Positions 6,663 to 29,525 of a stretch of 64,000 nt of DNA are shown here, one piece after another. A program made the translations under genes and the position numbers. Every line of letters begins with the position of its first letter. Positions within the stretch are counted from its first letter, which is position 1. The notes beneath the pieces were generated by a model. The model had not been told where the DNA came from, did no database searches, and was given only the letters and a program-made list of their open reading frames with translations. The stretch is from a virus (Duplodnaviria; Caudoviricetes), in the IMG/VR virus record IMGVR_UViG_3300037067_017690, positions 32,001 through 96,000 of that record. One strand, 5' to 3'.

Positions 6663-7076
6663 ATGAAAATAGCATATTCTCTCACAGCACAAAAACCTAA
6701 TTGGCTCAATATAATTTTCTGGTTAACAGATTATATAAATGATGAATGGATTATTGTTCAACAACCTACATATTTAGGATCAATTGAATTAAATGGTAGT
6801 AGTCTTATTACAAATATAGAATCTTCAGTTAATGGATTTTATCCATTTAAAATAAAAGTCCACGCTTCTAAATTTGATGCTTTGGCTACAGGTGGTATAG
6901 GTAAAATTAAAATGATCATTGGGTCATTGAGTACCGAATTAGAAAATCCTCCAATGCATGTGTTGAAACAAACGGATAAACCAATCGATGAAAGTTCAGT
7001 AATAGAAATTAGTAAACAAAAAGGACTATGGGATTTATACCCATGGAACCAAGAAAATGATGATTTTACTAATTAA
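6663..7076 (+). CDS. Hypothetical protein (MKIAYS...)
   Basis: ORF; TAAAAT 7 nt upstream of ATG 6663 and no SD. Confidence 0.55.
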   Translation: MKIAYSLTAQKPNWLNIIFWLTDYINDEWIIVQQPTYLGSIELNGSSLITNIESSVNGFYPFKIKVHASKFDALATGGIGKIKMIIGSLSTELENPPMHVLKQTDKPIDESSVIEISKQKGLWDLYPWNQENDDFTN

Positions 7077-8283
7077 AGCAAATCTTTTTCTGCGTCAAAG
7101 GGATCATATCAGAGTCAAAAATTTTTCTAACTCCTGCTCCTTTGTGTTTAATAATTTTAGAAGCATTATAATCTGCTTCTAATTCTATTCCACATTTCAG
7201 ACACTTGAAGAGTGACTGACTCACTCGATTGTCCTCATGTCTGAATCCACATTCTGAACATTCCCGACTCGTAAAAGCAGGATTGACTATAGTAAAAAGA
7301 ATACCATTCTCTTCACAAAATCTGTTCAATTTCTTGTGGGTAAAATTATATACCCACCTAACATATTTATTATCACACTTCTTACGCTTCTTCAAATCTC
7401 GGAGATCTTCTACTTTAATTTCTTTAATATTTTTCAAACTGAGATTATTCACTAAATGATTAATATATTCATTTCTATAAATCAATGATTGCCTAAAATT
7501 TTTAGATCCGGAATAATTTTCTGTTGGTTGCTTCTTGCGAGAAATTTTATCATAAATTTTATGGAGATCTTTAGTTCCAATATATTCTTGTCTTGAAGTA
7601 ACTAGAAGATTTATAAATCCCATATCGATTCCTAAAATATCTCCTGAAGATTTCAAAGGAACTTCTTTTTCGTGAATAAACTTTAACCAATATCTATCTT
7701 GAAGATCTTTGCGAAGAAATATAGTTTTCTTGTGAGTCCAATCTTTATACTTATTAGAATGTTTATGGTGTTTTATAGGAAGATTAAAAGTATGAGCATA
7801 TTTTTTATTCCTCATATAGGGAGATCTAATCAGAATAAATTCATCAAAATGAATGGAATCCTTAGAATCCCACATTGTCTGATCTAATTCTATTTGAATT
7901 GTTTTGAAATCTGGAATCTTTAATTTTTCAATAATACCAATTTCTTCGAATCTCTTCTTAAGAAATACTAATTGTCTATTTTTCTTAAGAAAATATTTCA
8001 TACATTTTTTATATTTATGTAATTTATATTTCCAGAAATTTCGTCTAAGATGTTCTATTTCTAAAGATGCATGTTGATAGCATTGTTTTCTCCATTGAGA
8101 ATGTTGAAGTTTATTGATTGGCAACAATTTAGTGGACAACATCTTCTTATGAGGAAGTTCTCTAGAAATAATCTTTTCCATGTAAAATTTAAGATCCGTC
8201 TCATAATCCTTAAATAATTGATCAAGAATCAGAGTCTTCTTAGAAGTCTGAAATTTTAAAAGATGTTTAGATGTTCGAATCAT
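7069..8283 (-). CDS. tnpB: Stand-alone TnpB/Cas12f-like RNA-guided endonuclease
   Basis: RuvC-I LGIDMG, RuvC-II VEDL, TSRECSECG...FKCLKCG Zn finger, RuvC-III ADYNASKII; likely start MIRTSKH at 8283; no adjacent tnpA. Confidence 0.9.
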   Translation of the reverse strand: MIRTSKHLLKFQTSKKTLILDQLFKDYETDLKFYMEKIISRELPHKKMLSTKLLPINKLQHSQWRKQCYQHASLEIEHLRRNFWKYKLHKYKKCMKYFLKKNRQLVFLKKRFEEIGIIEKLKIPDFKTIQIELDQTMWDSKDSIHFDEFILIRSPYMRNKKYAHTFNLPIKHHKHSNKYKDWTHKKTIFLRKDLQDRYWLKFIHEKEVPLKSSGDILGIDMGFINLLVTSRQEYIGTKDLHKIYDKISRKKQPTENYSGSKNFRQSLIYRNEYINHLVNNLSLKNIKEIKVEDLRDLKKRKKCDNKYVRWVYNFTHKKLNRFCEENGILFTIVNPAFTSRECSECGFRHEDNRVSQSLFKCLKCGIELEADYNASKIIKHKGAGVRKIFDSDMIPLTQKKICFN

Positions 8284-8339
8284 TTTTATACTATACCTGA
8301 ATAAATTTAAAAAGTTATAATTTTTCAAAGGACAATTTT

Positions 8340-8741: not shown

Positions 8742-8900
8742 TTCAAATACTAAATTTCCACAATCCCATATTCTATCGAAACCATTGATTTGCATATTCT
8801 CCCATTCAGTAAGTTTAGGATCAAAGATAGTAAGAATTTTAGATAGTTTGTGTTTTTGATACTTTATGCGGGATTGTAAAATATCATATTTAGTATAAAA

Positions 8901-9158
8901 ATGATTTGAAAAATTTATAAAAAGATATAAAAATTTCTCGTATACAAATAATAATTCATATACATTTTTTGAAAATTAAATTTTCAAAATGGGTAAACCA
9001 TCTACCCTTGCTTGTTTAGCAATTTTAAATTGCTTATATTTCTCTATTCTAATTTAGCTATGCTAAATTTTATAAATCTACTCAAAGTTGATTTATAAAA
9101 AATATTATAAATCATATAAAATTTTATAATAAAATTAAATATTAATCTTTATAATTTG
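8901..9158 (-). mobile_element. 250-bp non-autonomous IS607-related mini-element (MITE-like) carrying omegaRNA-like hairpins
   Basis: Flanked by CAAATTAT (9158..9151) and CAAATCAT (8908..8901). 8900-9045 matches the tnpB-end region of the IS607 at 27517-27680; 9121-9157 resembles the other IS607 end at 29438-29474. Confidence 0.8.
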
Positions 9159-10059
9159 GTCCAGAAATATCTACTAATTCAAATCCATTCTTTAAATACA
9201 CATTTCCATTACTGAATCTTCTATCTGCATAAGTAATTAAAGATTTTGGAGAATAAATCTTAATAAAGTATGATAGCAACTTACTAAATCCACCCATCAC
9301 ATTAGTATTCAATTTATTACAATACCTCAATAATTCATATTCATACTTCTTGTTATATCTTGGTTTACCAAATGTTGCCAATGCAACTAATTTTTCATTA
9401 AAAAATAATCCTAAATTGATAGATGATTTGACTTCATCTTGAATATGATTGTGATATAAAAATTCAGAACAATCTTTATATTTGAGTTGTTTTATTTCAC
9501 ATTTTCTAGCATGGATTTTTTCTTTGATTAATCCTAATTTAGTTAATATTATGGATTTTACAATTTCTTGTTTTTGAATCCATTCTGATTCAAATATGTG
9601 AATTATTTGAATTCCTTTATTTAAGAAATATTCTGATTTATTGAGATGATATGTGGGAATTTTTCCTCCTCCGATTTCGGAATGCCAATAAAGCCCATTG
9701 AATTCTATCCCTATATTTTTTGAAGGAATATAGATGTCTAATTCATATTTGTATTTCTTTTCATAATATCTTTTGTTGCATTCAATTGAAATGTGCTCTT
9801 GGAGCCAATTTTGAAGTTCTGATTCTATGTTTGAAAAGCCAGAAAATATTGGATAACATTTAAGACATCTAGGTATAATTCCATTCAAAATTGATTGATT
9901 AAAAATATTATTGCACTTTATGCATTGCCAAGGATAATTTTCATGACCATTAGTATAATCTTCTAATGAAAATAATGGCCTGATTGTTTTAAAATTCAAA
10001 ATTTTATTATAGAATTTTTTATTCTTAGTTTTTAATATTTTTGTTTTAATTGGATTAGA

Positions 10060-10660
10060 TTGTTGTGGATAATTTGTTCCATATTTTTTAAGATTGGTTT
10101 GTTTTATTTGCTTTTTTATGGATTCATGTTGAAAATTCCATTCACAACCATATTTTTTAAGATTAGTTTGTTTTATTTTATTTTCAATTTTTTCAGATTG
10201 TCTTGGATTTTTTACTCCATATTTTTCAAGATTGGTTTGTTTAATCTTTTCCTTAGTTTCTTCTGATTGAAAATTATGCTCTACTCCATATTTTTCAAGA
10301 TTAGTTTGTTTAATCTTTTCTCGAATTTTTTTAGAGCTCAGGACATTTTCACAACCATATTTTTCAAGATTAGTTTGTTTTATTTTATTTTTTATTTTTT
10401 CAGATTGAAATGGATTTTCTACTCCATATTTTTTAAGATTAGTTTGCTTGGATTTTTCTTGTACATATTTATTTTTCATAGAACATTTATGTCCATATTT
10501 TTCAAGATTGGTGGCATTTTGTTTGGCCTTTACAAATATGTTTTGCGAAGAATGTTTTACTCCATATTTTTCAAGATTAGTTTGTTTTATTTTATTTTTT
10601 ATTTTTTCAGATTGAAATGGATTTTCTACTCCATATTTTTTAAGATTAGTTTGCTTGGCG
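10060..10660 (-). repeat. About nine 69-bp (23-aa) tandem repeats KQTNL[EK]KYGVEN...
   Basis: Repeated ccatattttt[tc]aagatt[ag]gtttg on the + strand. Confidence 0.9.
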
Positions 10661-10806
10661 AATTTTAATTTATACGTCATCCCTTCCTTAGAAAAAGAAC
10701 ATTTTTGAGAACAAAATGTTTTATGATTATGATTTTTTCGACATACTGGGCATATACTCATAAAAAGAATATACCGCAATTATAATTTTTCAAAAGAGGA
10801 ATTTTT

Positions 10807-19117: not shown

Positions 19118-21679
19118 ATGATAAATACATATATACCCTTACACGTTCATTCAATGACTTCCTTTCTCGATGGATTTATTGATATTGAGAAATATGTCGC
19201 ATTTTGTAAAGAACAACAATTTCCTGGTTGTGCAATTACAGATCATGGGAGTATGAGTTCAGTTATTGAATTCTATCAGCAATGTGAAAAACATAAAATC
19301 AATCCAATTATTGGTTGTGAAATGTACATTACACAAAAAGATGATAGAGATGAACCGATCCGAGATAATTTTCACATAAATATATTTGCTAAAAATGAAC
19401 AGGGATACAAAGAATTATGTACTATATTTACAGAATCTAATATTAATCGATATTATTATAGGCCAAGAACTCATATTTCTGTTTTAAAAAAATATGCAAA
19501 AAATTTAATTTGTTCATCAGCTTGCATGTCCGGAGAAATTCAACAATGTTTATTGAAACATCCAAATGAAAAAGGATTAGCTATAGCAAAACTTAGAGAA
19601 TATATGGATGTATTTGGAGATGATTTTTATATTGAACTCGTACTTGCAGATTTAAATGCTCAAAGAGATGCAAATAAATTATTGATGGGATTGATAAAAG
19701 ATTATAATCTAAAATTTATTATTACTACAGATGCTCACTATCTTAGACCTGAAGATGAAATTTGTCAAGATGTTTTATTAAAAATTCAACGTGAAGGTTT
19801 TACATTTTCTTCGAAAACTCATTGGGTAGCAACTTTTGATGAACTTAAAAAATTAGTAAAAGAACAACATCCATATATTAATGATGAATTTTTCAATAAG
19901 GCTATAGAATATACTCACGAGATCAATAAAAAAGTACATATTGATTTTTCTGAATGGATAGGTAAAATTAATATGCCAGATTTCAAAAATGAATTAAATA
20001 TGGATAATTTGAAATTCTTTGAAAAATTGACAGCAGAAGGCTTCGATAAATTTCTTGATAAATACGAAAAGTATGTTGGTCCAATGTCTGAAGAATTGGA
20101 AGAACGATACAGAAAACGAGTTAAATATGAATATGAAGTATTAGCAAAATCAGGAAGTTTTTTATATATTTTACTTGTAAGAGATATAATTCAAAAAGCC
20201 CATAAATTAAAGACGATAATTAAACCCAACCAATTGAAGGTTGGTGATTATTTTTACAAGAATGAAATTAAATATGCAGTTATTTCAATTGATTCAGAAT
20301 TTATAGTGTTGAATTTTTTTAATAATCAAATAGAAAAAATTACATTGGATATTAATGAGAAAATTGAATTGAGTAAAGAAATTATGACAGGGATGGGTCG
20401 AGGATCAGCCGCTGGTTCTCTGATTTGTTATTTATTAGATATTACTCAAATAGATCCAATTCGCAGAGATTTACTTTTTGAACGTTTCGTAAACCCAACT
20501 AGATTGTTCGGAGGATTTCAACCAGAATTATCTTGTTTATCTTATGCAATGTATAAATTATATCATTATAAAGAAGAACATGATAAATGGAATTTAGAAA
20601 ATATCTTAAAAAAACATAATATCGAAATTGATGATAGATTAAGAATTGAAATTGATTTTTTTCAAAAATATAATGCTGAACCATATATTTGTTATGTAGC
20701 TTCAAAAGAAGAATATCGTGAAACAAAAAATATCTTTAATTCTTGGTTATTATATCATTTAGGGATTACAGATGAAGAACCTAAAGAAGATTTTAAAGCA
20801 AAATATTCTCCTCCAACTTTTCCTGATATAGATGTAGATTTTTCAGATAAAGGAAGAGCAGTTGATATGATGGTTGAAAATTATGTGTCAAATAATAATG
20901 ATCATATCACTAAAAGAAGAGCATATCCGGTTGCGGCTTTCGGACAGTTAAAATGCAAAGGAGCAATTAAAGATGTAGCAAAAGCTATTGAATCCATTAT
21001 TATAGATTATTCGAAAACATGGGAAGAACATGAAAAAAATAATAAGAAAAAATATACAGATGAAACTGAAGATGGATTAAATGTGGCTCGTGATAAATGG
21101 GAGAAAGCAAAAGAAAATTATATCAAAGAAGGAATTTTTGATCCTAAAATGTTAAAATATTTATCATTTGAAAATGTCAATAAAGCGACTAGAGAAATGC
21201 CGGCTAATGTTACTTTCGATGATTTAAAAGCTGATAAAAATTTAAAATTATATAAAGAAATCCCTAAAGTGATGGAAATTGCTGAACGATTGGAATATAC
21301 TAAAAAATATTTAGGAACTCATGCTTCAGCAGTGTGTATCATTCCTGAATATATGGTTGATTGTGTTCCGATAGCTAGAACTGGAGATGATTTTATTATA
21401 GCTATGAATGATGTTCAAGCATGTGGTGGAGATTATTCTAACAATTTAGGATTGGTTAAAAATGATATTCTCGGATTAACTTCATTATTATTTTTACAAG
21501 AAGCTCAAGAGATGGCAGCAACTCATTTTGAAGTTATAGCAGAAAGTGGAAAGCGATATTGTTTTGATTATAATGCAAAATTCGAATTAATAGATGGGAC
21601 AATCAAACATATAATAGAATTACAAGAAGGAGATGATATAGTTGGCATCATTTCTGATGATGCCAACTATATCAAATAA
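19118..21679 (+). CDS. dnaE: DNA polymerase III alpha subunit, N-terminal fragment (PHP + palm)
   Basis: PLHVHS..SFLDG, AITDHG, TTDAHY, GRGSAAGSL, PDIDVDF, THAS.V, VKNDILGL; lacks fingers/HhH/OB C-terminal part. Confidence 0.92.
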   Translation: MINTYIPLHVHSMTSFLDGFIDIEKYVAFCKEQQFPGCAITDHGSMSSVIEFYQQCEKHKINPIIGCEMYITQKDDRDEPIRDNFHINIFAKNEQGYKELCTIFTESNINRYYYRPRTHISVLKKYAKNLICSSACMSGEIQQCLLKHPNEKGLAIAKLREYMDVFGDDFYIELVLADLNAQRDANKLLMGLIKDYNLKFIITTDAHYLRPEDEICQDVLLKIQREGFTFSSKTHWVATFDELKKLVKEQHPYINDEFFNKAIEYTHEINKKVHIDFSEWIGKINMPDFKNELNMDNLKFFEKLTAEGFDKFLDKYEKYVGPMSEELEERYRKRVKYEYEVLAKSGSFLYILLVRDIIQKAHKLKTIIKPNQLKVGDYFYKNEIKYAVISIDSEFIVLNFFNNQIEKITLDINEKIELSKEIMTGMGRGSAAGSLICYLLDITQIDPIRRDLLFERFVNPTRLFGGFQPELSCLSYAMYKLYHYKEEHDKWNLENILKKHNIEIDDRLRIEIDFFQKYNAEPYICYVASKEEYRETKNIFNSWLLYHLGITDEEPKEDFKAKYSPPTFPDIDVDFSDKGRAVDMMVENYVSNNNDHITKRRAYPVAAFGQLKCKGAIKDVAKAIESIIIDYSKTWEEHEKNNKKKYTDETEDGLNVARDKWEKAKENYIKEGIFDPKMLKYLSFENVNKATREMPANVTFDDLKADKNLKLYKEIPKVMEIAERLEYTKKYLGTHASAVCIIPEYMVDCVPIARTGDDFIIAMNDVQACGGDYSNNLGLVKNDILGLTSLLFLQEAQEMAATHFEVIAESGKRYCFDYNAKFELIDGTIKHIIELQEGDDIVGIISDDANYIK

Positions 21680-23897: not shown

Positions 23898-24042
23898 TCC
23901 TTGTAAAAGGAGAAGAAATTTCATGGTCCGAGGAACTATACTATTGATCAAATCACATACTATGGAAATTTTGGAGAAATTATCAATAAGCACCATTACG
24001 AGATGTATTTTCCGAAAGATCGTGAATTTGTTGTAACTTTAT

Positions 24043-24189
24043 AGGAAGTTTGGTTGAGGAGTGGTTCTCCTAATAAACTCAAGGTTCTCGCCCTAGAAAT
24101 AGGAGAGCAAATTTGCCGAGCTGTCATAGCCACTGGGCGTTTAATGATGATGGTTTTATTGCATAAAAACCAATGCCAGCCTACTTCCT
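24043..24189 (+). ncRNA. Candidate structured non-coding RNA (unassigned family)
   Basis: GC-richer intergenic island; ends pair (AGGAAGT/ACTTCCT, GGTTG/CAGCC); internal hairpins including CCTA-GAAA-TAGG and TGGTTTT/AAAACCA. Confidence 0.55.
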
Positions 24190-24190
24190 T

Positions 24191-25200
24191 ATTTTAGATT
24201 AAAATTTCATCATGAAATTAGTTTAAAATAACTATTTCATAAAAAGCTATATAAAATTATATTACTTTTATATGAAAACAGTCTAAAGAACTCTTTTCGA
24301 ATTAGAGAGAACCTATATTTCAATTTAGATTCTTTTGACAAGTTGAATAATTCTTTCCAACTCAAAGAATTCCAATCTAAGTCTTGCTTCCATAGCTTCT
24401 TTAGATTCTCAATATTCTTCTTCACTGGATAAAACCATCCTTTGTCATACTTCTTATAGCCTCTTCGGGCTATCTCAATCGATGATGCTACTTGGTCTGG
24501 TGTGTGATCATCTCCATAGTTCACATTGCCTACAAAACTTGAATATGCTGCATTCACCTCAATTAGTTCAATACCATTCAATCCACATCTTTTTCTCAAA
24601 TTATTTACAATTCTTCCTCTATCCCATCTTCCATTTACTAATCTATAATTAAATCCAAATCTTGTCAATCTGTCTTTATAAGTAATGTAGACAGTTTGAA
24701 TTTCTCGATTGATTATTTTTTCTAAAAGATCATTGAATTGAATTCTATTTTCATTCATGCCGGAAGCAATATCTTGATAAATCCCATCTACTTTAATTCC
24801 ATTTTTGATCATGAATTCTTTAAGAATGATTATTTGACGATCTAAATCTGATTTTTGTTTAGTATTACTTACTCTAGCATAGAGGACATTGATTTTTTTA
24901 ATTTTAGAAGATGAGAGTAGACCTGAGACGTCGTATAGAATTTTATGAGAGGTGATTTGAATCCATTTGATTTTATTAGATTTTTTCTAATTCCAAAGAG
25001 TTTGAGAAGTGATTCCAAATAATTTTCTTACTTCTTTAGCTGTTTTAAATTCTTCCATGATATCAAATTATAAATCATGTTTAGAAATATTCAATAAAAT
25101 TTAAAAGAGGTATAATTTAATAAATGATTAGATGATAAATAATATAACTTTATAAGATTTTATAAAGAATTTTAACAAATGAGTCAATTAAAATTTAATA
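24191..25200 (-). mobile_element. Defective IS607-family element (tnpA nonsense + internal deletion fusing tnpA to tnpB 3' end); ends approximate
   Basis: ATG 25058 MEEFKTAKEVRKLFGITSQTLWN*KK...YARVS...DLDRQ...DIASG...KDRLTRFGFNY continues in frame into TnpB-type NNL.KRC...VNAAYSSFVGN...ASSIEIARRG, stop at 24237. Confidence 0.8.
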
Positions 25201-26713: not shown

Positions 26714-27526
26714 ATGACTAAAGATTTATTTGGTGATAGAATGAAAATGTATGAAACTTTAGACCCTAAAACTAAATTTATGCCTTTATTGCCAATTTGT
26801 GTACGATTGGATGGTAAAACTTTTCATTCATGGACAAAAGGATTAAAAACTCCTTATGATGATGATTTCAGAAATTGCATGGTTGAAACAACAAAATTCT
26901 TGGTAGATGAAACTGCTGCCGTAATGGGTTATACACAATCAGATGAAATAAGTTTGATTCTTTATTCTGATAGTTGCGAAAAACAAGTATATTTTGAAGG
27001 AAAAGTTAAGAAAATAATCAGTGTAATTTCAAGTCTTTGCACGGCTAAATTTAATGAAATTTCTAAAAAAGTATTTCCGAATAAGCCTTTAGCATTTTTT
27101 GATTGTAGAGCTTGGCAAGTTCCGAATCTTATTGAGACTGTCAATGTATTATTGTGGAGAGAATTAGATGCTACAAAAAATAGTGTAACTATGGCGGCAT
27201 CTTGTTATTATTCACACAAGGAATTAATGAACCAAGGGAATGCGGATAAACTAGAAATGTTGCATAAAAAAGGTGTGAATTGGAATGATTATCCTACGTA
27301 TTTTAAAAGAGGTGCATACGTAGCCAGAAGAAAAATTCTTAGGGAATTATCTGAAGAAGAAAGGATGAAAATTCCTGAACAACATAGACCAGCTAAAGAT
27401 TTAAAGGTTTCAAGAACTACTGTTATGGTATTAGAACTTCCTCCTTTACTAAAAATTAAAAACAGAGTAGAAGTAATTTTCAATGGGGGTCCAATTATTT
27501 TGGAAAGTGAATCACAAATGATTTGA
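26714..27526 (+). CDS. tRNA(His) guanylyltransferase Thg1-like protein
   Basis: GDRMKMYE, VRLDGKTFH, YTQSDEISL, FDCR, WRELDA.KNS and KGVNWND motifs. Confidence 0.92.
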   Translation: MTKDLFGDRMKMYETLDPKTKFMPLLPICVRLDGKTFHSWTKGLKTPYDDDFRNCMVETTKFLVDETAAVMGYTQSDEISLILYSDSCEKQVYFEGKVKKIISVISSLCTAKFNEISKKVFPNKPLAFFDCRAWQVPNLIETVNVLLWRELDATKNSVTMAASCYYSHKELMNQGNADKLEMLHKKGVNWNDYPTYFKRGAYVARRKILRELSEEERMKIPEQHRPAKDLKVSRTTVMVLELPPLLKIKNRVEVIFNGGPIILESESQMI

Positions 27527-27553
27527 AATTTTTATAAAAAGATATAAAAATCC

Positions 27554-28807
27554 TCATATACAAATCAATTTCGAATTTTGATTCATATACATTTCAAGAA
27601 AATTGGTCAGAATTTCTGACCAATTTTCTACTTGGGTAAACCATTTACCCATAATTCTTTTAGCAATATTTATTGCTGAATTTAAATCTCTGTCAATTTC
27701 TATAAATTTATTCAATCTTACTCTTCTTATACTCAAATCAGAATTAAATTCTCTCTTTCCTGTTAAACAATTCTCTTGTGAAGTGTAAGCTTCATTTACT
27801 TTATAAAAATCTAATCCTAGATTCTTAGCTTTATATTCTAAAAATCCTTTAAATCTACTCAATGTTCCTCTGTTCTGAGTTGATTTATTCTTACCTCTCT
27901 CTTGTGGGCTCCTTCCTCTTGTTACTAATTTCTTTGTTTTAATATCACCAACTATTAAACATCCAATATTATTTCCCGTACAAATATCAATTATTTCTCT
28001 AGATGCTTTGTGTTGAAAATCCTTGTTCTTATTAGTTATTTTTCTTGAAATCTTATTAAATCTATTCTTTATCTTCTTCCAATTATTACTAAATTTCTTT
28101 TTGATGTCTATTTTCGATTGAAGAAGACCTTTTCTTTTTTCTAATTTTTTAAATTGATTATTTTTGATTGAGAAACATTTACCAACATTTGAGAAACATT
28201 TACCAACATTTGAGAAACAAGTAGCTATTTGAGAACACCCTAAATCAATTGAAAGAAAATTATCTTTTGATAAGATTAGATTTGATGGTTGTTCAGAATA
28301 CACAAAGATAATAAAATATTTATCATCTTCTTTTTTAAAAGTAATAGTTTTTATAGTGGAATCATTAATCTCATATTTAGAAAATATTTCTGGAAGATCA
28401 ATAATTAATTTATTTTTAATGGAATTTAGATTGAGTTCTAATTGATTATTATTTATTTTGAACCCACCATTTCCTTGATTGAAATCTAACATAAATGAAG
28501 TGAAATATTTCCAACTTTTGAATTTATGAGGAAATTTAGCAGTAGAATTTTTCTTTTTGTTTAGAGCAAAGAATGATTTGATATTATTAATGAGAGTTCT
28601 GCAAGTATTTTGAGCAGATTTAGAATTGATCGTAAGATTGTTTAAATTTCTATAATTTTTATAAAATTGATTTAAATCTTTAGATTGCAATCCTTTACGA
28701 GCTTGTTCTAATAATTGATTATAAAGAATTCTATGTTCATTACTAAGAGTATTTATTTTGATCTCTTGTAAATAATTTGGGAATATTCTAATTTTTAATG
28801 ATTTCAT
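27554..28807 (-). CDS. tnpB: IS607 TnpB RNA-guided nuclease
   Basis: LKIRIFP HTH start (MKSLKIR, 28807), LSIDLG, IVGDI, LEYKA, NEAYTSQ, DRDLNSAINI. Confidence 0.9.
   Translation of the reverse strand: MKSLKIRIFPNYLQEIKINTLSNEHRILYNQLLEQARKGLQSKDLNQFYKNYRNLNNLTINSKSAQNTCRTLINNIKSFFALNKKKNSTAKFPHKFKSWKYFTSFMLDFNQGNGGFKINNNQLELNLNSIKNKLIIDLPEIFSKYEINDSTIKTITFKKEDDKYFIIFVYSEQPSNLILSKDNFLSIDLGCSQIATCFSNVGKCFSNVGKCFSIKNNQFKKLEKRKGLLQSKIDIKKKFSNNWKKIKNRFNKISRKITNKNKDFQHKASREIIDICTGNNIGCLIVGDIKTKKLVTRGRSPQERGKNKSTQNRGTLSRFKGFLEYKAKNLGLDFYKVNEAYTSQENCLTGKREFNSDLSIRRVRLNKFIEIDRDLNSAINIAKRIMGKWFTQVENWSEILTNFLEMYMNQNSKLICI
28168..28219. repeat. 21-bp in-frame tandem duplication in tnpB (CFSNVGK x2)
   Basis: ttgagaaacatttaccaacat x2.5. 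Confidence 0.95.
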
Positions 28808-29411
28808 CTTTAATTTCTCGAAGATTATCTTCTGTTTTTTTAATCTTGTTTTTATAAGATCTTTTTCCATATAATTTCATTGAAAAATAATGAACAATTG
28901 AAATAAGATCTTCAGCAAATTCTTGTTGTTCTGTTTTATTTTCACTTTTATCTAAAATGATTATTTCAGAATTATTTTCTCTTGCCAATTTTTCAAAAAA
29001 TTCAAATCCAAATCTTACTAACCGATCTTTATAGAAGATAATCAATTTTTCTATAGAATTTGTAAGAAAATATTTAATTAATTTTTGAAGACCTTGTCTG
29101 TTATAATTTAATGCAGAACCAAATTCAGAAATGACTTCATCAATTTGAATCCCATTTTTGAAACAAAATTCTTTGATTTTAGATTCTTGACCAATTAAAC
29201 CAGATTTTTGTTGTTTAGTAGATTCTCTGCAATAAATCACATTTAATCTTTTTGAAGTTTTGATTCCTTTGATTTTGAGTAAATGTTCATCTGTATATCT
29301 TCTATGTTTAGAATTTAATTTTATAGGAACTAATTTTTGATTTTTATCCCAATTCCTAAGAGTTTGTTTAGTAACATTTATTAATTTAGAGAATTCATTT
29401 ATTGTATACAT
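28788..29411 (-). CDS. tnpA: IS607 TnpA (MerR-type HTH + serine recombinase)
   Basis: QTLRNWD...HRRY, YCRES (catalytic Ser), KDRLVRFGFE, EDLISIV.YFS.KLYG.RS. Confidence 0.93.
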   Translation of the reverse strand: MYTINEFSKLINVTKQTLRNWDKNQKLVPIKLNSKHRRYTDEHLLKIKGIKTSKRLNVIYCRESTKQQKSGLIGQESKIKEFCFKNGIQIDEVISEFGSALNYNRQGLQKLIKYFLTNSIEKLIIFYKDRLVRFGFEFFEKLARENNSEIIILDKSENKTEQQEFAEDLISIVHYFSMKLYGKRSYKNKIKKTEDNLREIKDEIIKN

Positions 29412-29525
29412 ATAAGAATTATTATAATCCTTATATTATTTTATAATATAAATAAATATTAATGGTCATAATTTATCAGAACAGTTTGAATTAGTTAAAA
29501 TATAGTCTGGGCGTAAAATTATTAC

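Follow-up and report, generated by a model that had tools for sequence, protein, structure and literature searches.

Standalone omegaRNAs, i.e. scaffolds without an effector or a transposase that occur in genomes also carrying complete loci, act in trans (Altae-Tran et al., 2021, as summarized in PMC10691335). Gene-less PATE-like IS200/IS605 elements are known from Geobacillus stearothermophilus; many of them encode omegaRNAs, and they depend on TnpA as well as TnpB supplied in trans (PMC10055086). For the IS607 IStron of C. botulinum, a gene-less laboratory mini-IS is excised in trans, and ends of ~40 bp (left) and ~60 bp (right) are sufficient for this; the IS607 TnpB cuts the donor joint (PMC10690162). 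The guide used by TnpB is the stretch of 16–20 nt that immediately follows the right end (PMC10690162, PMC10691335). In most IS607 elements the terminus is GG, integration takes place next to GG and the TAM is G-rich, the RAGATH-18 RNA is the omegaRNA of some IS607 TnpBs, and homing into co-infecting phages has been discussed under the term “non-restorative homing” (PMC13565253).

Here, we describe a 250-nt insert located in a phage genome. Comparative analysis of the sequences confirmed that it is a non-coding, gene-less and internally deleted IS607 that splits a homing-endonuclease gene. In our judgement it is probably, though by no means certainly, an active derivative, mobilized by TnpA and carrying a scaffold that the resident TnpB can use in trans. 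Like the standalone omegaRNAs, as these are summarized in PMC10691335, it is a scaffold-only and possibly mobilized unit with a predicted guide in its flank and a complete element in the same genome; it differs from them in being of the IS607 type (serine recombinase), phage-borne, present in a single copy and located inside a homing-endonuclease gene, and its action in trans is predicted. With the PATE-like elements it shares a gene-less, minimal organization and conserved left and right ends (PMC10055086), but those elements depend on a Y1 (HUH) transposase and have ssDNA hairpin ends and a TTGAT-like TAM, whereas the parent of the insert is of the serine-recombinase type and lacks hairpin ends. 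The C. botulinum IStron resembles the parent in combining a serine-recombinase TnpA and a TnpB with an omegaRNA that overlaps the 3′ end of tnpB and the right end (PMC10690162); in contrast, the locus described here has no group I intron, and AT-rich sequences (AAATTAT, ...CAT ends) take the place of GG/TGGG in its core and target. Moreover, the mini-IS of that system was man-made, whereas the insert is natural. Finally, Fanzor2 and “pro-Fanzor” proteins (mimivirus L79, PDB 9b0l; PMC13565253) have in common with the resident TnpB a Gly at the position of the canonical Glu, an aligned alternative Glu and an association with an IS607-type recombinase, while the resident TnpB differs in being a phage protein of 417 aa with one conserved Cys at the zinc-finger site. 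To the published gene-less omegaRNA elements the insert adds one well-documented example rather than a surprise. Two of its features are unusual, the AT-type target and ends of the IS607 lineage and the location inside another selfish gene; the Fanzor2-like TnpB and the naturally trimmed scaffold are further points of note.

Origin of the analysed sequence

The window, i.e. the whole stretch of 64,000 nt that was analysed, comprises bases 32001–96000 of a 105,868-bp IMG/VR virus record, which represents ~42% of a complete genome (CheckV). The G+C content of the window is 24–37%. The record encodes an HK97-type major head protein, a head-tail connector, a DnaE-type polymerase and a helicase, which identifies its source as a large tailed phage. 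The full stretch was present in one run only, a groundwater metagenome. The ORF of the DnaE-type polymerase (19118–21679, plus strand) covers only positions 42–440 of the 1190-position PHROG 405 profile, and the gene therefore seems to be split. The features of the window that are relevant to the insert are listed in Table 1.

Table 1. Features of the insert, of the interrupted gene and of the resident IS607 (positions within the window)
Feature	Position	Strand	Basis and remarks
Mini IS607 element	8901..9150	-	250 nt, no ORF of its own; restored frame, intact relatives, both ends match the IS607 at 27518-29467
Left-end (LE) segment, presumed TnpA-binding end	9094..9150	-	81% identity, ungapped, to 29411-29467, plus shared 7-nt flank
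Right-end (RE) segment with omegaRNA-like scaffold	8901..9089	-	Full-length match to covariance model R1
Hairpin 1 (AGCAAT / ATTGCT)	9018..9034	-	Fold and motif coordinates; IS607 counterpart 27662-27677; loop changed
Hairpin 2 (GGGTAGA / TTTACCC)	8991..9007	-	Family covariation; IS607 counterpart 27634-27650
Hairpin 3	8967..8989	-	Tip 16 nt shorter than in IS607; family compensatory change
Hairpin 4	8940..8963	-	Tip shortened; IS607 counterpart 27556-27592
Hairpin 5	8908..8937	-	Adjoins terminal AAATCAT (8901-8907)
TAM-like left flank AAATTAT	9151..9157	-	Codons Pro-Asn-Tyr; same 7 nt flank the full IS607 at 29468-29474; putative TAM role
Predicted guide-encoding flank, starts TTTTATACTAAATATG	8881..8900	-	Predicted from TnpB systems
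Interrupted homing-endonuclease gene, N-terminal part	9151..10779	-	Pfam DUF7487; PHROG 3339; alignment with P0122
Same endonuclease gene, C-terminal 55 codons	8735..8900	-	Still open; 73% identity to P0122 536-591
Complete IS607-type element, 1950 bp, in the last codons of the Thg1 gene	27518..29467	-	Family-wide terminal ...CAT, shared AAATTAT flank
tnpA, serine recombinase with MerR-type HTH	28788..29411	-	Pfam Resolvase 1.6e-16, MerR_1 2.6e-11
tnpB, 417 aa counted from Met22 of the listed ORF	27554..28807	-	Pfam OrfB_IS605 and Cas12f1-like_TNB
Perfect 21-bp tandem duplication in tnpB	28178..28219	-	Adds CFSNVGK; no difference between its two DNA copies
omegaRNA-like scaffold of the full IS607	27518..27737	-	R1 170.6 bits (sequence was in the training set)

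The insert and the interrupted homing-endonuclease gene

The ORF upstream of the insert (10779 to 9142, minus strand) ends with ...ISGPNY, followed by KD and a stop codon located inside the insert. The downstream 55 codons (8900 to 8735) form an open frame with the sequence FYTKYD...RIWDCGNLVFELK; at this base composition, an open stretch of that length has a chance probability of 0.007. Removal of 8901–9150 (minus strand) rejoins ...SGPNY to FYTKYD... and restores a homing-endonuclease gene of PHROG 3339; that this deletion gives back the full gene had been proposed in a first-pass annotation of this DNA. Intact relatives read straight through the joint: in more than 2,000 database relatives the two gene parts form one unbroken sequence (...PNYFY(T/M)K...). 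The same annotation had left the codon at the joint as either Tyr or His, and here the relatives decide for the former, having TAT (Tyr) and not CAT. The N-terminal part aligns to residues 1–535 of an intact relative, P0122, and the C-terminal fragment continues this alignment (Table 1). The PHROG 3339 “homing endonuclease” profile (536 positions) is covered from 116 to 480 by the window ORF and from 111 to 533 by P0122. Relatives of the split gene contain (i) DUF7487 repeats, (ii) a PD-(D/E)xK-type domain (MTES_1575) and (iii) a Mom-like C-terminal domain. The N-terminal part comprises the DUF7487 repeats, the PD-(D/E)xK-like domain and the start of the Mom-like domain, within which the insert is located.

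The insert is oriented in the same direction as the endonuclease gene, and its right terminus is AAATCAT (8907–8901, minus strand). The insertion site, AAATTAT/TTTTAT, is the AT-rich coding sequence of a conserved motif, Pro-Asn-Tyr/Phe-Tyr. Apart from the two-codon tail of the split gene, no ORF of at least 30 aa was found within 8901–9150, in agreement with the earlier description of the insert as non-coding. The former tnpB frame is broken by a stop codon and by indels, many of which are not multiples of three.

The proposal that the two ends of the insert are those of an IS607 was also borne out. The left end (~57 nt), taken together with the AAATTAT flank, matches the window sequence 29411–29474 at 52 of 64 positions without gaps (81%). 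Compared with seven left ends of the lineage, it shows clear likeness to that of the resident IS607 only (score 66, the others reaching at most 38). The right end (~185 nt) shares 69% identity with the tnpB-side end over ~134 nt (E 4e-15), and the final 36 nt of the insert are 94% identical to the right end of the resident IS607. Two structures of the insert have no counterpart in the full IS607, namely a 10-bp inverted repeat across the LE/RE junction (9069–9099, minus strand) and a 7-bp hairpin (9052–9068, minus strand).

The resident IS607 element

The IS607 with tnpA and tnpB that had been noted 18 kb away from the insert is complete, and both of its genes look intact. Inspection of the sequence showed that it has neither terminal inverted repeats nor a target-site duplication; the right flank is TTGTG or TTTTA and the left one AAATTAT, with no duplication between flanks. 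The MerR-type HTH of TnpA is N-terminal, and tnpB is located downstream, the two ORFs overlapping at 28788–28807. TnpA keeps all columns invariant in six homologues, including a RES(64)T motif, which, by analogy with S67 of the C. botulinum enzyme (PMC10690162), would hold the catalytic serine. An effector of the insert's own lineage is encoded in the same genome: this TnpB keeps the catalytic D, E and D, with D209, E360 and D395 being invariant in 40 homologues. By these comparisons, TnpA and the catalytic residues of TnpB look intact.

The whole TnpB lineage has a Gly (G308) at the canonical RuvC-II Glu and an invariant Glu (E360) just before a YTSQ motif. It lacks zinc-finger cysteine pairs, and one conserved Cys is present where the zinc finger would be. 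The lineage profile matches the mimivirus Fanzor2 (9b0l; E 1.8e-16), with E360 aligned to the Fanzor2 Glu, and its match to the ISDra2 TnpB is weaker. The structure model of the resident TnpB (mean pLDDT 77) has a TnpB/Cas12f fold. The 7-residue duplication (CFSNVGK) is found in the window copy alone, being absent from all 39 homologues, and the model places it in a hairpin after the first RuvC strand (pLDDT <50).

All close relatives of this TnpB that were found (50–59% identity) are from viral or unbinned metagenome contigs. Among prokaryote genome representatives (185,579 genomes) the best match reached 32%, and no host copy was detected. The lineage, a phage-restricted IS607 that combines a relocated catalytic Glu, the lack of a zinc finger and AT-rich ends with a compact scaffold of ~150 nt, is of use to studies of how Fanzor2 originated.

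Several observations concern the neighbourhood of the lineage members. The Thg1 (tRNA-His guanylyltransferase) gene occupied by the resident IS607 (27498–27526 and 29468–29510) ends with ...ESESQMI, and the joined flanks would read ...ESESQIIYQNSLN. In four metagenome contigs (L184, 2538–2760; L185, L186 and L187) a GIY-YIG homing-endonuclease gene directly follows an IS607 of this lineage, which gives a further example of the lineage bordering on a gene of that kind; L184 also has a thyX gene on the upstream side of its IS607. A tnpB relative (59% identity) of another contig (L183, 1501–2718) matches its database protein only when TGA is read as Trp, which indicates that the lineage also occurs in recoded (code 4) genomes.

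Conserved RNA structure of the right end

The covariance model R1 is based on an alignment of the final 210 nt (right-end side) of 16 non-redundant elements, from which the insert was excluded. The relatives used have TnpBs of 50–59% identity and all come from viral or unbinned metagenome contigs. The right ends of all 16 elements finish with ...CAT. R1 finds the insert over the full model length, with the match stopping exactly at the terminal CAT (76.5 bits, E 1.8e-13), and this score is close to those of the lowest-scoring true family members (81–94 bits). The insert is the only extra match in the window, the next best having an E value of 0.07.

These values bear on the trivial explanation that the resemblance is a chance similarity of AT-rich sequences or an artefact of assembly, which we regard as hardly credible. 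In a genome with a G+C content of 25–30% short AT-rich matches are indeed common, but the gap between the R1 match of the insert and the next one is large on this scale (1.8e-13 vs. 0.07), and it is exactly 250 nt whose removal restores the frame. In addition, a contig of 3188 nt from the source run agrees with the window sequence throughout the insert, although it comes from the same sample and is not independent.

The fold of the window copy consists of five successive hairpins. When it is projected on the 16-sequence alignment, 76% of cells are paired, compared with 32–47% in a control with slid partners. In the same alignment 24 pairs change on both sides, and none of 500 shuffles reaches the observed covariation score. 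Hairpin 3 shows compensatory change in 12 of its 15 pairs across the family, despite its position within the coding region, and hairpin 2 covaries from T-A to C-G, A-T or G-C; both were independently recovered by RNAalifold. The covariation check suggested earlier has thereby been carried out: the family supports the structure, and this structure is conserved between the insert and the IS607.

In the insert, 40 of the 54 model pairs form, while deletions have removed 11, either from the tips of hairpins 3 and 4 or from an outer helix with weak support. Relative to the resident copy, the insert has 2 compensatory, 3 compatible and 2–3 disruptive pair changes. One base pair of hairpin 3 is flipped from A-T to T-A, and hairpin 5 contains a 2x2 internal loop. 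Single-sequence folds of the insert and of the IS607 copy give the same five hairpins. The stems reported in the first-pass annotation to be kept in order were recovered: AGCAAT/ATTGCT with a changed loop, GGGTA.A/T.TACCC kept and the GAAAATT stem shortened. The stem next to the GAAAATT stem is likewise kept but shortened, and a fifth one comes after it. The naturally shortened scaffold points to hairpin tips that may be dispensable.

The scaffold is specific to this IS607 lineage. From its position at the 3′ end of tnpB and the right end, the covariation and the published biology of TnpB, we infer that the conserved structure is an omegaRNA. In Rfam, neither the insert nor the right end of the IS607 matched any family, group I introns and RAGATH-18 included (gathering score; E up to 1). 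The lack of a group I intron match also speaks against a self-splicing, IStron-like insert that would be silent, with the endonuclease still being made. IS607-type IStrons do exist inside genes (PMC10690162, PMC4227781), but here the left part (~57 nt) is far too short for a ribozyme core and the ORF stops two codons into the insert, so that we consider such splicing very improbable.

Target sites and predicted guides

Both the insert and the full IS607 are located directly after AAATTAT and end with AAATCAT, and three complete relatives sit after AATCCAT. From these sites and the CAT ends it appears that the lineage uses an AT core and AT-rich sites. The GG terminus and target of typical IS607 elements were not found: the right ends of the family are CAT and the flanks end with AT. 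The CAT-type ends are a variant of the lineage, and its membership in IS607 stands.

The 16- and 20-nt guides predicted for the insert and for the IS607 match only their own flanks within the 105-kb contig. More distant relatives of the endonuclease gene share CCAAAYTAY, and their guide region differs at 3 or more of 16 bases. Possible targets would be confined to close alleles. For the C. botulinum IStron, TAM and right end (TGGG and TCGG) are distinguished by position −3, and the occupied site is spared there (PMC10690162); the corresponding pair here is the putative TAM TTAT and the right end TCAT. By parallel with the IStron, the TCAT right end, as opposed to the TTAT target, may spare the occupied site. 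Excision is predicted to leave a scarless joint, in which ...CCAAATTAT is joined to TTTTATAC.... A promoter scan returned 8 sites, with 6.9 expected.

An inverted 16/17 match to the right-end junction (GAATCAT followed by TTTTATACTA) occurs at 8274–8299 (plus strand), where it overlaps the start codon of a second tnpB. It is probably a chance match in AT-rich DNA.

Further copies and uninterrupted relatives

The suggested search for more copies and for empty sites gave a divided result: uninterrupted relatives exist, but neither a second copy of the insert nor an exact empty allele was recovered. A second copy was looked for in the 105-kb contig, 57 family loci, 80 pattern-matched viral loci and 3 whole viral records, and an exact empty allele among the relatives and the contigs of the source sample. 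One contig of that sample, ~80% identical, joins position 8861 to 9215 with 106 bases instead of 353 (~247 nt shorter), and is by this comparison an uninterrupted relative.

In IMG/VR, a single-protein search for close TnpB relatives returned none, a profile search for TnpB returned two close loci only, and exact right-end patterns had no match. A looser pattern of hairpin 2 returned at least 120 stretches, of which 80 were kept as loci; R1 accepted one of them, which is a known tnpB 3′ end. The insert, used as a distant blastn query against a phage collection, had no match.

Proposed activity of the insert

As an active gene-less derivative, the insert would have arisen by an internal deletion that removed tnpA and nearly all of tnpB, with ~57 nt of the left end, ~185 nt of the right end and the omegaRNA scaffold remaining. 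The resident TnpA would recognize both ends and excise or integrate the 250-bp unit via a circular intermediate, using an AT core next to AAAT(T/C). Read-through transcription together with the split gene would yield the scaffold followed by 16–20 nt of the flank as a guide. The resident TnpB would bind this RNA and cut DNA in which AAATTAT is directly joined to the match of the guide, i.e. the endonuclease gene without the insert, whether freed by excision or present in a co-infecting relative. Copying from the occupied allele during repair would then restore or spread the insert. The published findings outlined at the start lend support to these steps (PMC10690162, PMC10691335). The absence of decay in the split gene and the many substitutions and non-triplet indels relative to the IS607 suggest, on the simplest reading, an insert that was already gene-less on arrival, whether it came by transposition or by homing from another genome.

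Alternatively, the insert may be a dead relic: a full-length IS607 relative could have inserted at this site and lost its genes by deletion on the spot, leaving an inert remnant. This is a possibility of some substance, if a less probable one. The insert is present in a single copy, and its scaffold is diverged and shortened; moreover, hairpins 3 and 4 are likewise short in some full-length members of the family, so a different parent could explain part of the shortening in one step. Against this, the stems are kept while loops and tips have changed (with the compensatory and compatible changes noted above, 2 and 3, respectively), both termini are retained at 81–94% identity, and the frame-breaking indels imply a time without coding constraint, yet the fragment of the host gene is undecayed.

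For the active derivative, the part of the proposal that concerns guiding in trans is made reasonable by the published work on IS607 and on standalone omegaRNAs (PMC10690162, PMC10691335). It is less assured on three counts: (i) an identity to the resident scaffold of only ~70–83%, the shortening of hairpins 3 and 4 and the 2x2 loop of hairpin 5 weaken the case for compatibility of the TnpB with the scaffold, (ii) the resident tnpB carries the 21-bp tandem duplication beside the first RuvC strand, and (iii) no second insert copy and no exact empty allele were found in the searches described above. As the contig represents ~42% of the genome (CheckV), a better-matched partner may lie elsewhere. 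If the insert is active, it would illustrate how a phage can widen the target range of a single TnpB nuclease with no more than 250 bases, and that guide-only transposon derivatives spread in phage populations as they do in bacterial chromosomes.

The more far-reaching reading is that of a working RNA-guided gene drive of one selfish element against another, in which the insert, transcribed along with the split gene, supplies a second guide for the Fanzor2-like TnpB and intact endonuclease alleles are cut in co-infecting relatives. We consider this unlikely. Were it true, the allele would be converted into its interrupted version or the rival genome would be lost, and the locus would be a natural instance of a transposon moving between phages by “non-restorative” homing, the IS607 lineage concerned having changed from GG to AT-rich targets.

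Other TnpB and IS607-like sequences of the window

Two other sequences of the window were considered as partners of the insert and rejected, as neither shows sequence or model similarity to it: the second TnpB (7069–8328) and a decayed IS607-like relic at ~24.1–25.1 kb. The former is encoded by a solo tnpB (7069–8283, minus strand) of another lineage, with a canonical RuvC Glu (IKVEDL) and a CxxC zinc finger and without tnpA. It is separated from the end of the split endonuclease gene by ~450 bp, and R1 finds nothing at the 3′ end of this tnpB.

The decayed element (24237–25100, minus strand) belongs to another IS607-like subfamily, and its upstream HTH part is cut by a stop codon. It has no relationship to the insert or to the second tnpB. 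A 191-aa ORF at the same position combines the middle of a serine recombinase (Pfam Resolvase) with a tail resembling a TnpB C-terminus (inspection, weak BLAST). The element shares 38% identity with the resident tnpA over 136 residues (tblastn, 24645–25043). Directly downstream of it lies a G+C-richer, structured-looking stretch (24041–24192), which could be the element's own guide-RNA scaffold, encoded on the minus strand.
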